DNA of 60,202 nt, filler included, from Dehalococcoidia bacterium (GTDB taxonomy: Bacteria; Chloroflexota; Dehalococcoidia; DSTF01; RBG-16-68-14), in NCBI GenBank assembly GCA_040882355.1. It is 4 parts of 4 records of this genome, joined end to end, with 100 filler letters (N's around TTAATTAATTAA, not from the genome) between each part and the next. Parts side by side here need not be neighbours in the genome. Positions count along the whole stretch, not along the records: positions 16,744 to 32,879 come from JBBEBM010000058.1; 3 more parts are not named here. One strand, 5' to 3'. Made by a program: the position numbers. Below, one piece after another: positions 18,001-21,000 of the stretch (within the stretch, counting starts at the first letter, position 1; each line of letters begins with the position of its first letter).

Positions 18001-21000
18001 TCCGAGCGAGCCGGTGCTCTACGTGCTCGAGATCAACGCGGGCCTGGTGGACGGCGCCGGCGTGCAGGTGGGTGACGCGGTAACCTTCGAGCCGGAGGTA
18101 TCGCCGGGACAGGCGTCGTAGCATAGTGAACATAACGAACGATCTCAGCCAGCGAGCGAAGCGCCTGCTCCGGTCCGCCGTTCCGTGGCTGCTCGTCGTC
18201 GCGCTCGCACTCTTCGCATCGTGCGGCGACGATGGCGGCGAGGCCGATGGCAGTGTCGCGCCAACCGCGTCGCCGGGTGGGCCGCCACTGGAGGGCAGTC
18301 TGTTCGCCAACGCGAGCTTCGAGGAGGGGGAGGCGCCCTGGGTCTCGCTGGAGTCGTGGGGCACGCAGTTCGCCGTCAGCGACGACGTCGCGCACTCAGG
18401 CGGGCATAGCGCGTTCCTCGAGCTGCGTAGCGAGGGCGCCGAAGACCAGCCGGCGCGCGTGTTCGGCGTCGTACAGGAAGTGACGCCCGACGAGTTTCCG
18501 GACGTGGTCTCCGGCTACTACTACGTCGACCGCTGGGAGCCGGGCACGCCGAAGCAGTACATGCAGTTCGTCGTGATCGTGTTCGGCGCCGACAACATTC
18601 CGGCGGAGGCGGCGCCGGCGACGAATCACCAGATCCGCTACATTCTGGCCGGCGTCGACTCGCCGCCGATCGCGATCACCAACGCTCGTTTCGTCATGGT
18701 CGGCACCGGCGCACCGAAGCAGGGCGAGTGGGTGCGCTTCGAGCGCAACATCCGAGAGGACTTCGAACAGCTCTGGGGCTCGGTGCCGGAGGGGCACGAC
18801 TTCATCCGCATCCTTTTCGAGGCGCGCTGGGACGAGCGCGCTCCGGACGCGCCGGCGTCCGCGGCGGACGTGTACTACGACGATCTGTACGCGGGGCCCG
18901 CGCCCGTGACGCCGTAGCCGAGCCCCTTCCAACAGGCTGAAGCCTGTCCCGCAGAAGGCAGAGGTCGACCGCCGGCTGGAGTCGGCGGCATGCAGGCGAG
19001 GCTTCCAGCCTCGCCTATGGTGAGTGCGGGGCGGAACGGCGAGAACCCGTCGCGCAGGCGAGGCGCTAGCCCGTGGCCCCGCCGGCGGGCGCTACGTCGA
19101 CCGGCACGGTCGCCTCGTCGGCCCCCGCGCTGGCTGTGAGCTGCCAGCTCCCGGCCTGCGGGAAGACGAGGTTGACGACGTAGTAGCTACCGGCGTCGTC
19201 CTCGCCGGTGGGAGTCGCGCGCCGGGCCTCGAATTCGACCGACGCGCCGCCTCGCTCCGCTCTCAGCGGAAGCGATTCCTGCTGATAGCCGTTCGTGACG
19301 CGGAGGACGAGCTTGTAGGACTGGTCCGTTTGCACCGACGCGAACTGGTCGCTCGTGCGCCAGAAGATGGGGTCTTCGCCCGTCTCGTACGGCAGGTCGA
19401 GCGAGTTGCCGGACGTCGGGTCTGTCTCGCTTGCCGTTGGCGAGACGATGGTGACGCTGACCGCTTCGGTCGGCGTCACCGCGGCCTCGCTGGCTGGCTC
19501 GTGATCGTCGCACGCGACGGCGACCGTGAGGGCGAGGAGCGTCGCGGCGAGCAGGAGAGCGGTCCGTATCTGCGATCTCATCGTCTCAGTATAACGCCGG
19601 GTTTTACGAGAGGAGCGGAGCGACGAGGAGGTAGGCGGCGAACGCGCCGAGGGCGACTCCGGTCACCTGGTGGACGTGCGGCGCGAGTGCGATCAGCCGC
19701 TGGTTGAGGTCCGCGACGTCGCCGGGCTCTTTGCAGTTGGCGCTGCTGTAGATCGCGAAGGCGCGTGTTGCGCCGTAGACCAGGCCGGCGAGCGCTCCGT
19801 AGACGACGTTGCCGGAGACGAAGAGCCAGGCGAGCATGATCGGGAAGCTGGCGTAGGGCACCCTTGTGAAGACGCCGAAGCCGACGGTCCCGCCGAAGAT
19901 GACCGCGCTCCGATAAAACGTGCCGTGCACCCAGCTCGCGGGGACCTGCCAGTCGCGGCCGGGTACCGGCAGGCGCAGGAAGCCAAGCTCGTGGGCGGCG
20001 TAGACGAGCGAGACAGCGCCCAGCGCGATCGCGAGCGGTACCGTCGCGTCCGGCCAGAGGGCCTCGACGCCCCAGCCGGCTGTCGCGACGAGGACGCCGG
20101 TGGTCATGCCCGCCACCGTCATCGCGAGGGCGTAGACGGTTGCGCGCTGCAGCCAGCGCCGGTAGGTCTGAGTCCCTTCCACGAAGGGAGCGATCGTAAA
20201 GATCGCGTTGTGGCCTCAGGCGCTGCAGGTCTGGGCCAGGCCGACCAGCGCGGCAAGGGCGAGGCCGAGGCCGGCGGCGCCCGCCTCCCACGACAGTCCG
20301 GCTGTCGCGGCGGCGAGCGCCAGGCCCAGCGCCAGCCCGAGCGCGAGCAAGAGGGCGTGCCTGGCGTTGGTGAGCTGTTCCGCTCGGATCATAGTCTCAG
20401 TGTAGCCGTTCCGGCGAGGCCGTGGCCCCGCTGCTACGGCTCCTCAGCCCGGGCAGAACTGGGGGTTGTTGTGGTAGTCGCTGCCGCAGCCGCAGATGCC
20501 TTCCGGGCAGACGCAGTCGCAGCAGGTGACGGTGTCCGTCACCCAACAGCCGGAGGCGTAACCGACCCAGAACATGCAGGGCTTGGCGCAGACGCCGCCG
20601 GAGCTACAGCGTTCGCAGGCGCAGGGCAGGCTCGGGAAATCGCAGACGGTGGGAAAGCTGCCGGCGCTGGCCGGGCGCCCCTGCGTCGCCACGCCCGCCG
20701 CGGCGCCGAGGAGAGCGCCCATCGCCGTCTGCGCGCCGCGCCCGAATAGGCCGCGACGGGTCGTGTGGCGGGCGAGGCCTTCGCTAGCGCGTTGGAGCAG
20801 GCTCACGGGCGAACACTGATTGCTCGCGCCCTACGGGCAGAACAGGGGGTTGTTGTGGTAGTCGCCTCCACAGCCGCACCAGCCGTCCCCCGCGACCGCG
20901 GGACAGACGCAGTCGCAGCAGGTGACGAGAGCATTCAGGTCTGTGTTGAACACGACCCAGCAACCGGAGGCATAGTACTCGGTCAAGATCATGCATGGCT

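Follow-up and report, generated by a model that had tools for sequence, protein, structure and literature searches.

MauF is encoded in the mauFBEDA... clusters of Proteobacteria such as Paracoccus and Methylobacterium. MauF, MauE, and MauD are thought to form or repair the disulfides of the small subunit of methylamine dehydrogenase. To our knowledge, the biochemical function of MauF is known from genetics only, and the genetic data show only that the protein is required for this subunit. A second point of comparison is given by the CcdA/DsbD membrane proteins, represented by DsbD_TM (PF02683) and DsbD_2 (PF13386), the latter being placed in a clan that includes ion exporters. Regarding selenoproteins, a 2026 catalogue of 119 prokaryotic families is, in the part available to us, dominated by soluble thioredoxin-fold proteins (PMC13188914). 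Two membrane proteins described in that part are relevant here, namely TsoB, a rhodanese/DsbD fusion-like selenoprotein (NF045694; U-x-x-x-x-U), and a MerT-like putative mercuric transport selenoprotein (PF02411; C/S-x-x-U; PMC13188914).

A mauF-related gene with an in-frame UGA and its neighbors

The window, that is the whole stretch of DNA analyzed (60,202 nucleotides from the genome of a Dehalococcoidia bacterium, hereafter G000), carries a gene for a MauF-related membrane protein with one in-frame TGA (Table 1). Judged from sequence, this TGA almost certainly encodes selenocysteine (Sec). The product, denoted here Sec-MauF (P0001 in the searches), is very probably a genuine selenoprotein and a member of the MauF family. 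An earlier note on this DNA had proposed one frame of 262 residues with a single TGA, and its ATG (at 20392), TGA, and TAA (19604-19606) are all confirmed; translated with TGA as U, it contains ...LAQTCSAUGHNAIF.... The note's survey of the family could also be reproduced. Orthologs with 59-72% identity and exactly one TGA each are found in 12 of 15 sister genomes and, with G000 included, the TGA lies within Q[TR]CSA-U-G[HY]N in all 13 sequences.

Table 1. Positions of the Sec-MauF gene, its RNA elements, and the neighboring genes, counted along the window.
Feature	Position	Strand	Remarks
303-aa protein, no family assigned	22944..23855	-	Twin-arginine signal; opens the conserved operon
MauE/DoxX-family membrane protein	22240..22920	-	PF07291, E 8e-29; conserved D-C-H-C-F-G
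MauD-like membrane-anchored thioredoxin-fold protein	21623..22243	-	S-C-A-P-C; AhpC-TSA/Redoxin; TIGR02661 (MauD) E 2.4e-21, below cut-off
Three tandem Cys-rich small-protein genes	21224-21604, 20831-21220, 20444-20806	-	About 120-130 aa each; twin-arginine MauA-like leader
Sec-MauF gene	19604..20392	-	262 codons, ATG to TAA, single in-frame TGA; polytopic membrane protein
Cys56 codon (TGC)	20225..20227	-	C of the clade-specific C-S-A-U motif; in 13/13 family sequences
UGA codon 59, predicted selenocysteine	20216..20218	-	One alignment column across 22 Sec-form rows
Hairpin 1, GCGAUC-UUUAC-GAUCGC	20190..20206	-	nt +13 to +29 from the U of UGA
Hairpin 2, UCCCUUC-GUG-GAAGGGA, candidate SelB-binding bSECIS	20173..20189	-	nt +30 to +46
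171-aa lipoprotein-like protein, no family assigned	19066..19581	-	Last gene of the conserved operon

The order of the operon is the same in the five family genomes fetched (5/5). Its components are MauE, the MauD-like redoxin, the Cys-rich exported small proteins and, as a fourth kind, Sec-MauF. In one family genome, 95% complete (G001), the MauD gene, two Cys-rich genes, and the 171-aa gene are kept, with no MauF between them. As in the proteobacterial clusters, the mauF-like gene is found together with those of MauE and MauD. In contrast to these clusters, the operon lacks MauB, amicyanin, and MauG, and its small proteins are not recognizable as methylamine dehydrogenase light chains; no PF02975 or PF06433 gene was found in the window. 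The leader of the Cys-rich proteins is similar to that of acidobacterial light-chain-like proteins (hhalign probability 69%, for the leader only), and their mature part has no match in Pfam. An Atlas search with the 303-aa protein returned signal-peptide look-alikes only. At acidobacterial loci, the order is MauE, MauD-like, Me-amine-dh_L-like, Sec-MauF, and Me-amine-dh_H-like, the matches of these relatives to the methylamine dehydrogenase light and heavy chains being weak. Fusions of MauF with MauE (P0292, P0294) and with a beta-propeller (P0123) also occur. Elsewhere, rhodanese genes adjoin the cluster (L046, L048, G322), and in one case SelD is adjacent (L051).

Relationship to MauF and CcdA/DsbD, and proposed role

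Comparison of P0001 with MauF from Paracoccus versutus by BLASTP gives E 5e-12, with 35% identity over 109 residues and Sec opposite the Cys of TWSPCGYSS. The homology is also detected by hhalign (probability 99.3%, E 3.3e-20), and 11 of the 11 plasmid matches of a relative are annotated as MauF. The two kinds of protein are homologous over the membrane core and have in common the signature G-x-x-x-[ST]-W-[ST]-P-[C/U]-G, as well as an L-P-x-P-x-x-x-x-Q-V-P loop. They differ in that the conserved Cys is Sec in Sec-MauF, which comes from Chloroflexota and not from Proteobacteria, and that a predicted SECIS comes after it. Moreover, in this clade, W-S-P of the MauF signature [ST]-W-[ST]-P-C-G is replaced by C-S-A, giving C-S-A-U against W-S-P-C. 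Acidobacterial Sec forms retain W-S-P-U-G. The earlier note had presented the protein as founding a selenoprotein family missing from inventories. The family is indeed in neither NCBIfam nor the part of the 2026 catalogue available to us (PMC13188914). It is, however, not an unrelated family, and in our view it is a genuine selenoprotein family, not yet listed, that belongs to the already named MauF family. In listings from literature searches, no paper linking MauF to selenocysteine was found, and supplements of selenoprotein-prediction papers could list the family under another name.

P0001 itself matches no Pfam or NCBIfam entry, and profile searches of PDB sequences gave nothing at E up to 10, as the earlier note had also found. 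At E up to 1, DsbD_2 (PF13386; gathering threshold 24.9 bits) does not match P0001, and NF045694 (TsoB) matches neither P0001 nor six read-through relatives. The DsbD_2 threshold is passed by L047 (30.8 bits) and L038 (32.6 bits), both of them read-through relatives, and by the Cys homologue P0067 (34.4 bits), and DsbD_TM is reached by relatives just below its threshold. An AlphaFold2 model (pLDDT 84.6, pTM 0.84) has about ten helices, with the lowest confidence exactly at residues 58-60. Together with the alignment, it puts the Sec/Cys position into the core's first broken helix, as in CcdA/DsbD. No solved structure gives a clear match, CcdA being matched weakly, and Sec-MauF has an extra N-terminal helix. 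A Foldseek search against the PDB gave nothing at E <= 0.001; CcdA (5vkv) came at rank 43 (TM 0.34-0.39, E 1.2) and is absent from the VIA rows listed. The top VIA-align hits of the wide search were RnfA (8ahx_A; Z 5.6, rmsd 5.4, 144 residues aligned) and NqrE (7xk3_E; Z 5.5). As a Z of 5.6 is below the noise level of the tool for helical bundles, no fold assignment is drawn. The second (TM4) active-site Cys of CcdA/DsbD is missing, its place being taken by T-R-[VI]-P (F-T-R-V-P in P0001), which leaves only the first site occupied, by Sec. Hence a two-Cys mechanism like that of CcdA is not to be taken for granted. In L038 and L035-L037, which form a sister subfamily, a CcdA-like second Cys is retained in G-C-P. 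Overall, the core of the earlier reading, a polytopic membrane selenoprotein of the DsbD superfamily whose gene is split by gene callers, appears right.

Sec-MauF shares with TsoB a DsbD-like membrane part and, in some cases, rhodanese genes nearby. It differs from TsoB, as described in the part of the catalogue available to us, by one Sec instead of two, by its motif, and by the lack of a fused rhodanese (PMC13188914). With the MerT-like protein, as described in that part, it shares a C-x-x-U in a transmembrane segment, whereas no sequence relation was found and size, context, and partners differ (PMC13188914).

The natural exchange of Cys for Sec at the one invariant cysteine of MauF suggests that this residue is a working one, likely catalytic and redox-active. 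By analogy with the first active-site Cys of CcdA/DsbD, Sec59 would be a redox-active residue in an unwound intramembrane segment. It could cycle with Cys56 in this clade, through a C-x-x-U selenenylsulfide, and with a cysteine of a partner elsewhere. Sec-MauF may then relay reducing equivalents through the membrane, with MauD and/or MauE as acceptors. These would form or repair the many disulfides of the Cys-rich exported proteins encoded alongside, their presumed clients. As a whole, the explanation that we consider probable is that of a single gene encoding a Sec-containing MauF homologue of the DsbD_2/CcdA superfamily, with a putative redox relay; towards the thiol/selenol relay mechanism as such, we lean only slightly.

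Most of the family has one conserved redox residue and thus no intramolecular pair. This raises the possibility that the Sec/Cys of what would still be a Sec-MauF homologue serves to ligate or carry a metal or chalcogen (sulfur, selenium) moved across the membrane, in place of a part in a thiol-disulfide relay. Such a role would agree with the placing of relatives near TauE/SafE and DsbD_2 by public annotations and Pfam, with the rhodanese and SelD genes beside some clusters, and with the transporter-type membrane selenoproteins (MerT-like, SO_0444 efflux transporter, YeeE/YedE) that figure in the available part of the 2026 review (PMC13188914). However, the constant partners, MauD (thioredoxin fold with CxxC), MauE (CxC), and the Cys-rich exported proteins, argue for disulfide chemistry; moreover, a C-x-x-U pair was gained in this clade and the sister subfamily has its CcdA-like second Cys. 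Transport is therefore regarded as unlikely, and a redox role of Sec-MauF is preferred.

Decoding of the UGA codon

TGA is an ordinary stop codon in this genome, as the earlier note had stated. It ends 632 of the 1699 long ATG-started ORFs and also terminates two other genes of the Sec-MauF operon. Public gene models seen at related loci are cut just after the Sec codon, and the products are named hypothetical, TauE/SafE, or CcdA. The search yielded 708 representatives (50% identity) at E <= 0.001, 119 of them at <= 1e-10. Among the best 150, 113 start at query residue 60-66 (95 of those at 63), two at 58-59, and 31 later than residue 66; two are N-terminal fragments of 58 aa whose last residue directly precedes the Sec column, and two span this column, both with Cys. 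The "123 of 150" given previously is of a similar order, but it is not the number obtained here.

These gene models, together with the normal use of TGA, would agree with a true stop, the locus then encoding a 58-aa two-helix peptide and a separately initiated protein of about 190-200 residues. In the WSP-U-G group, an ATG lies four codons past the TGA and, as far as start codons alone are concerned, a separate ORF is allowed there. In G000, however, the downstream ORF is called from a GTG, at which seven of the 13 orthologs have GTC or GTT. The strongly conserved residues 60-90 can be translated in these only by read-through. In the 45 codons that precede the Cys codon, the three codon positions differ in variability (0.207/0.144/0.369) in the manner of coding sequence. 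This pattern, along with the ordinary TGA stops elsewhere, indicates that conservation of the frame across the TGA is not due to chance. Cys homologues, MauF included, are single polypeptides, covarying hairpins are confined to the TGA forms (see below), and the Sec machinery is present. A true stop is thus very improbable, and reading of the UGA as Sec is retained.

In agreement with the earlier note, the Sec column is occupied by Cys in stop-free homologues. This is the case in four stop-free rows of alignment A3, in four proteobacterial MauF sequences, and in P0002, P0067, L035-L037, P0291, P0293, and P0295. The Sec forms extend further. In six out of six loci from named Acidobacteriota and Chloroflexota MAGs, retrieved with the 9-row alignment A2, an in-frame TGA occurs four codons upstream of the annotated Met, in ALWSP-U-G, and in-frame TGA is also found in L034, L038, L039, and L045. 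In total, the in-frame UGA is conserved in the 13 family sequences (13/13) and in 10 more distant ones. The equivalent of Cys56 is absent from distant Sec forms and from MauF. The C-x-x-U proposed earlier as the family motif therefore holds for this clade (13/13) but not for the wider family, whose motif is [W/S/T]-[S/T]-[P/A/V]-U-G without Cys at -3. The WSP-U-G forms of Acidobacteriota and other Chloroflexota, encoded next to MauE, MauD, and light- and heavy-chain look-alikes, show that C-x-x-U is a peculiarity of this clade and U-G the general feature.

The two hairpins reported 3' of the UGA, with compensatory pairs, were found again. Across 22 distinct sequences, 87.1% of the cells are paired in hairpin 1, with both sides changing in three of six pairs, and 85.7% in hairpin 2, with both sides changing in six of seven. 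For both hairpins together, pairing amounts to 86.4%, compared with 38-50% when slid, with changes on both sides in nine of 13 pairs. Covariation scores 0.380 (vs. 0.192 in shuffles), a value reached in none of 500 shuffles. Synonymous sites are frozen in stems and free in loops. Averaged over 23 Sec forms, the fold z-score of +10..+51 is -2.56, compared with +0.24 over seven Cys forms. The bSECIS model, as given in the part of the catalogue available to us, requires a loop of 3-9 nt having G within its initial two positions, a spacing of 16-37 nt, and an MFE <= -7.5 (PMC13188914). Hairpin 2 of the window fits this model, with a 7-bp stem, a GUG loop, a 33-nt spacing, and -9.2 kcal/mol. Its loop G at +37 (window 20182) is invariant in 23/23 sequences, and hairpin 2 alone falls within the four published constraints in 20 of 23 Sec forms. 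These constraints are loose, a permissive bSECIS scan being passed by 19 of 23 Sec forms and also by three of seven Cys forms. The worry about an atypical loop, raised earlier, thus applies to hairpin 1 but not to hairpin 2, the G-U-N loop of which, 33 nt after the UGA, would be bound by SelB for the insertion of Sec. For hairpin 1, an alternative register pairing 12-17 with 22-27 has 56.8% of its cells paired, and pairing of 13-18 with 24-29 is preferred. An outer stem enclosing the UGA in the MFE fold of G000 was dropped, as it is not kept in other sequences. No relevant Rfam match was found in 19000-21000.

The presence of SelA, SelB, SelD, and tRNA-Sec, previously reported, was reproduced with selB at 321.9 bits, selA at 570.4 bits, selD at 373.4 bits, and tRNA-Sec (anticodon TCA) at 79.5 bits. 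SelB is also found in G322, G368, and G360. It was said to co-occur with the gene and is indeed detected in 10 of the 12 gene-bearing relatives, but also in two of the three in which the gene was not found, so that the co-occurrence has little weight within the family. Of known selenoproteins sought in G000, no TIGR01553 or PF00384 match and no stop inside CMD or AhpC-TSA matches were detected. A simple search of the whole genome for further CxxU/UxxC read-through frames with hairpins returned 892 candidates, most of them Arg-rich off-frames, and was given up as uninformative. Hairpins could promote read-through in general, with a standard amino acid inserted (near-cognate Trp, Cys, or Arg, or by a suppressor tRNA), yet this is hardly credible given that every stop-free homologue seen has Cys, which commonly stands in for Sec, in this column, that the Sec machinery is complete in G000 with SelB in the three genomes cited above, and that the position and G-U loop of hairpin 2 are those of the bSECIS model in the available part of the catalogue (PMC13188914).

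Significance of a probable Sec form of MauF

Sec-MauF adds a predicted polytopic, intramembrane Sec site to the selenoprotein catalogue. As gene models are cut after the Sec codon, selenoproteome counts and annotations are biased for soil Acidobacteriota and Chloroflexota. The exchange of Cys for Sec gives a direct test of MauF function, and the loci expose mau-like clusters with Cys-rich presumed clients far outside methylotrophs. A bolder proposal, which we hold to be doubtful, is that Sec, and not Cys, is the widespread and possibly ancestral state of MauF outside Proteobacteria. MauE, MauD, and Sec-MauF would then form a selenium-dependent transmembrane redox machine that matures undescribed, perhaps cofactor-bearing, Cys-rich exported proteins with MauA-type leaders. 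This machine might be a main reason why Sec decoding is kept in this Chloroflexota lineage, without formate dehydrogenase.

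A reading frame interrupted by a single TGA

The Sec-MauF gene is a single frame of 262 residues when its only internal stop is read as selenocysteine (U), within the motif LAQTCSAUGHNAIFTIAPFVEGT. As an earlier note on this DNA had claimed, table-11 ORF calling cuts it in two (Table). Its contig is the second of the four, and neighbourhood arguments are valid only inside that range. Orthologs (59-72% identity) with exactly one TGA each occur in 12 of the 15 genomes of the sister family and, in line with the earlier claim, the TGA lies inside Q[TR]CSA-U-G[HY]N in 13/13 sequences, including that of the source genome, G000. 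The N-terminal 58 residues of these 13 sequences can be aligned as protein. Moreover, the 45 codons upstream of the Cys codon show a coding signature, with variabilities of 0.207, 0.144 and 0.369 at codon positions 1, 2 and 3. Because residues 60-90 are strongly conserved and 7 of the 13 orthologs have GTC or GTT in place of the GTG that starts the downstream piece in G000, read-through is needed. Elsewhere in G000, TGA is an ordinary stop, as had been stated: among 1699 long ORFs, 632 use it as terminator, and so do MauE and one of the operon's Cys-rich genes.

Three sister genomes gave no Sec-MauF match. The cluster is interrupted by a contig end in G015, and G008 is 81% complete. In G001 (95% complete), MauD, a pair of Cys-rich genes and the gene for the 171-aa protein are kept, with MauF missing between them; this genome has really lost it.

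G000 (93.9% complete) contains the SelA, SelB, SelD and tRNA-Sec genes reported earlier. The co-occurrence of SelB with Sec-MauF, also invoked in the earlier note, is seen within the family but says little there, since SelB is nearly universal (12/15 relatives). SelB is above cut-off in three genomes having distant Sec forms (G322, G368, G360) and not in G403, where what was matched is a DsbD-like protein lacking a TGA. In G000 as a whole, neither formate dehydrogenase alpha (TIGR01553) nor any molybdopterin oxidoreductase (PF00384) has a match, internal stops are absent from its CMD and AhpC-TSA matches, and Sec-MauF is the sole selenoprotein gene identified there by a non-exhaustive search.

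In G000, Sec-MauF and the gene after it each have a -10-like TA[CT]ACT box 7-12 nt upstream of the start codon, and many orthologs have one at equivalent places (related loci L022-L033). There is no evident Shine-Dalgarno sequence at these places. The two genes could have internal promoters and leaderless or very short-leader transcripts.

Features of the Sec-MauF locus (window positions) and Sec machinery of G000 (contigs)
Feature	Position	Strand	Remarks
Filler (N) runs	16644-16743, 32880-32979, 46571-46670		separate the four parts
Sec-MauF contig	16744-32879
DUF192 protein	17612-18121	+	same contig, outside operon
Operon gene 1		-	303 aa, twin-arginine signal
Operon gene 2, MauE		-	PF07291, E 8e-29; D-C-H-C-F-G
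Operon gene 3, MauD-like redoxin		-	S-C-A-P-C
Three tandem Cys-rich proteins	20444-21604	-	next in operon; ~120-130 aa, SRRG twin-arginine leader
Sec-MauF frame	19604-20392	-	next in operon; ATG at 20392, TAA at 19604-19606
In-frame TGA	20216-20218	-	codon 59
Table-11 piece 1	20216-20392	-	58 aa
Table-11 piece 2	19604-20182	-	192 aa, GTG start
H1, GCGAUC-UUUAC-GAUCGC	20190-20206	-	+13..+29 from U of UGA
H2, UCCCUUC-GUG-GAAGGGA	20173-20189	-	+30..+46 from U of UGA
Lipoprotein-like protein		-	follows Sec-MauF; 171 aa
TA[CT]ACT boxes	20393-20412, 19582-19603	-
Alpha/beta hydrolase	24572-25669	-	dienelactone-hydrolase and PETase-like matches; same contig, outside operon
selB	C9		321.9 bits
selA	C10		570.4 bits
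selD	C57		373.4 bits
tRNA-Sec	C65		79.5 bits, anticodon TCA

Hairpins downstream of the UGA

The paired hairpins of the earlier note, H1 and H2, were borne out. The 75-nt stretch containing both has an MFE of -30.8 kcal/mol (z -3.2). When 23 Sec forms are aligned without gaps over 51 nt, 86.4% of the cells are paired, as compared with 38-50% when slid, a measure inflated by the use of a structure derived from the same sequences. Both sides have changed in 9 of the 13 pairs (e.g., G-C/A-U/C-G for columns 13:29, U-A/A-U/C-G for 34:42), and the covariation score (0.380 vs 0.192 in shuffles) was equalled by 0/500. G37 of the H2 loop is invariant, though in some rows its codon specifies Val and elsewhere Gly, and synonymous sites within the family are frozen in the stems and variable in the loops and junction.

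[quoted passage not shown] H2 alone satisfies it as given there in 20 of the 23 Sec forms, the other three failing only on energy. These constraints, as published there, are weak by themselves; 3/7 Cys forms also pass a permissive scan using them. When the same region was folded, the 7 Cys forms did not show the two-hairpin fold, and the mean z was +0.24 against -2.56 in the 23 Sec forms. Sec decoding would be of the standard bacterial type, and there is a Cys-homologue pair.

Identity and extent of the family

Using tblastn, a read-through acidobacterial member matched 11 records among 72,556 plasmids, all annotated 'methylamine utilization protein MauF'. In Paracoccus versutus, MauF (neighbourhood mauF-mauB-mauE-mauD-mauA-amicyanin-mauJ) reads ...GGLLSTWSPCGYSSISLLRP... 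at the matching stretch; its Cys is aligned to Sec59 by BLASTP with P0001, the window's protein (E 5e-12), and hhalign relates it to A3, a 26-row alignment of Sec and Cys forms (probability 99.3%, E 3.3e-20). Three more MauF sequences (Methylobacterium, Indioceanicola, P. yeei) share TWSPCGYSS. No Pfam or NCBIfam model matches MauF itself, which is why the earlier note stopped at 'DsbD-like'. The DsbD link is real, the DsbD_2 threshold of 24.9 bits being passed by the read-through relatives L047 (30.8) and L038 (32.6) and the Cys homologue P0067 (34.4), and DsbD_TM being reached by several members at 21-25 bits, but MauF is the sharper identity.

In A3, the Sec column (22 U, 4 C) and the next Gly are invariant. 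In a maximum-likelihood tree with weak deep branches and several long rows, Cys forms fall in four separate places, so that at least three Sec/Cys switches are required. A sister subfamily, L038 (Sec) and L035-L037 (Cys, ~300 aa), retains a second Cys in G-C-P where the window's clade has F-T-R-V-P. L035-L037 are extra ~300-aa paralogs in the family genomes G014, G002 and G003, with L-P-C-G-Y-P at the Sec column and G-C-P-M-P at the second Cys, the arrangement closest to CcdA; their nearest Sec relative, L038, comes from another family.

When 1.84 billion representatives were scanned in full with HMMER, 708 matched at E <=0.001 and 119 at E <=1e-10. As the earlier note had described for 'hypothetical' models, 113 of the best 150 of the 708 begin at query residue 60-66, just after the Sec codon (95 exactly at 63). 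Two begin at 58-59, two are 58-aa pieces ending in ...TCSA, 31 start later, and the two spanning the Sec column both have Cys (TWTPCGYN, NWSSCGCS). Among the matches listed, all 120 close P0001 homologues have 161-198 aa, cover <=76% of P0001 and, where named, are 'hypothetical protein'. Relatives of an acidobacterial member, mostly ~204 aa, are called 'sulfite exporter TauE/SafE family protein' or 'cytochrome c biogenesis protein CcdA'. A DNA check of six named MAGs (Pyrinomonadaceae, Blastocatellia, Acidobacteriota, Terriglobia, Acidiferrales, Chloroflexota; loci L046-L051) found an in-frame TGA four codons upstream of the annotated Met in 6/6, within ALWSP-U-G[LFID]SMVGTI. A 400-genome sample of the phylum gave matches in 7 other genomes, with TGA in the Sec column at L038, L039 and L045; it is there too at L034, a second copy in G003, and at L040, from the unpublished genome G242, on which no other result depends. 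U-G is thus the family signature, and the C-x-x-U of the earlier note, with its Cys at -3, is correct for the window's clade and specific to it.

In the 2026 review (PMC13188914), Table 1 gives 119 prokaryotic selenoprotein families or subfamilies with model accessions; the nearest are TsoB (rhodanese/DsbD fusion-like, NF045694), MerT-like, SO_0444 transporter and YeeE/YedE, and MauF, PF13386 and PF02683 are all absent from that table. NCBIfam 20.0 has no match for P0001, six read-through relatives or MauF, and a literature search, supplements of prediction papers aside, found no link between MauF and selenocysteine. On these grounds, and in agreement with the earlier note as far as that table goes, Sec-MauF, the putative Sec form of MauF, is regarded as a selenoprotein family that has gone unlisted.

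Operon partners and proposed role

The operon order is identical in 5/5 family genomes examined, the Cys-rich gene being present in 1-3 copies. The window's copies are tandem paralogs (57-65% mutual identity); compared with L056-L060 and L071, their mature part matches no family and has ~14 Cys that are invariant, and with the light-chain-like proteins of the MAG loci they have only the leader in common (hhalign probability 69% across 27 columns). MauE, MauD-like protein, small Cys-rich protein, Sec-MauF and beta-propeller/large ORF follow in this order in five of the six MAG loci (L046-L049, L051); L050 has a contig end just upstream of Sec-MauF, leaving only the downstream propeller ORF visible. 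The MauD-like protein of L046 matches TIGR02661 (114 bits), the small Cys-rich protein weakly matches Me-amine-dh_L in L046, L048 and L051 (22-26 bits) and the leader part of TIGR02659 in L046, the one locus scanned against NCBIfam, and the beta-propeller/large ORF matches Me-amine-dh_H/TIGR02658 in L046-L048.

Partnership is supported by fusions of MauF-like domains to MauE (P0292 and P0294, two clusters) and to a 7-bladed propeller (P0123); in P0295, the membrane domain is followed by a long C-terminal region. The fusions to MauE and to the propeller begin just past the Sec column and are probably also truncated selenoproteins.

Rhodanese-domain genes adjoin Sec-MauF clusters in two Acidobacteriota (L046:4579-5019, L048:4476-4904) and in G322 (L063, ~5452-5754), recalling the rhodanese/DsbD fusion TsoB. 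In one of the six loci, the Chloroflexota MAG, selD (TIGR00476, 334 bits; L051:4481-5515, minus strand) directly adjoins the MauE/MauD/light-chain-like/Sec-MauF/propeller cluster.

MauF, MauE and MauD are required for the methylamine dehydrogenase small subunit, and CcdA feeds ResA/CcmG. The AF2 model of Sec-MauF (pLDDT 84.6, pTM 0.84) has about ten helices and two unwound segments, around Sec59 and around F-T-R-V-P, with confidence <50 at residues 58-60. From operon context, fusions and this model, it can be proposed that Sec59 is a membrane-embedded redox-active residue and that Sec-MauF would act with MauD and MauE on disulfide-rich exported clients, analogously to CcdA. Sec-MauF is widespread and systematically mis-annotated, and it points to what would be the active residue in MauF.
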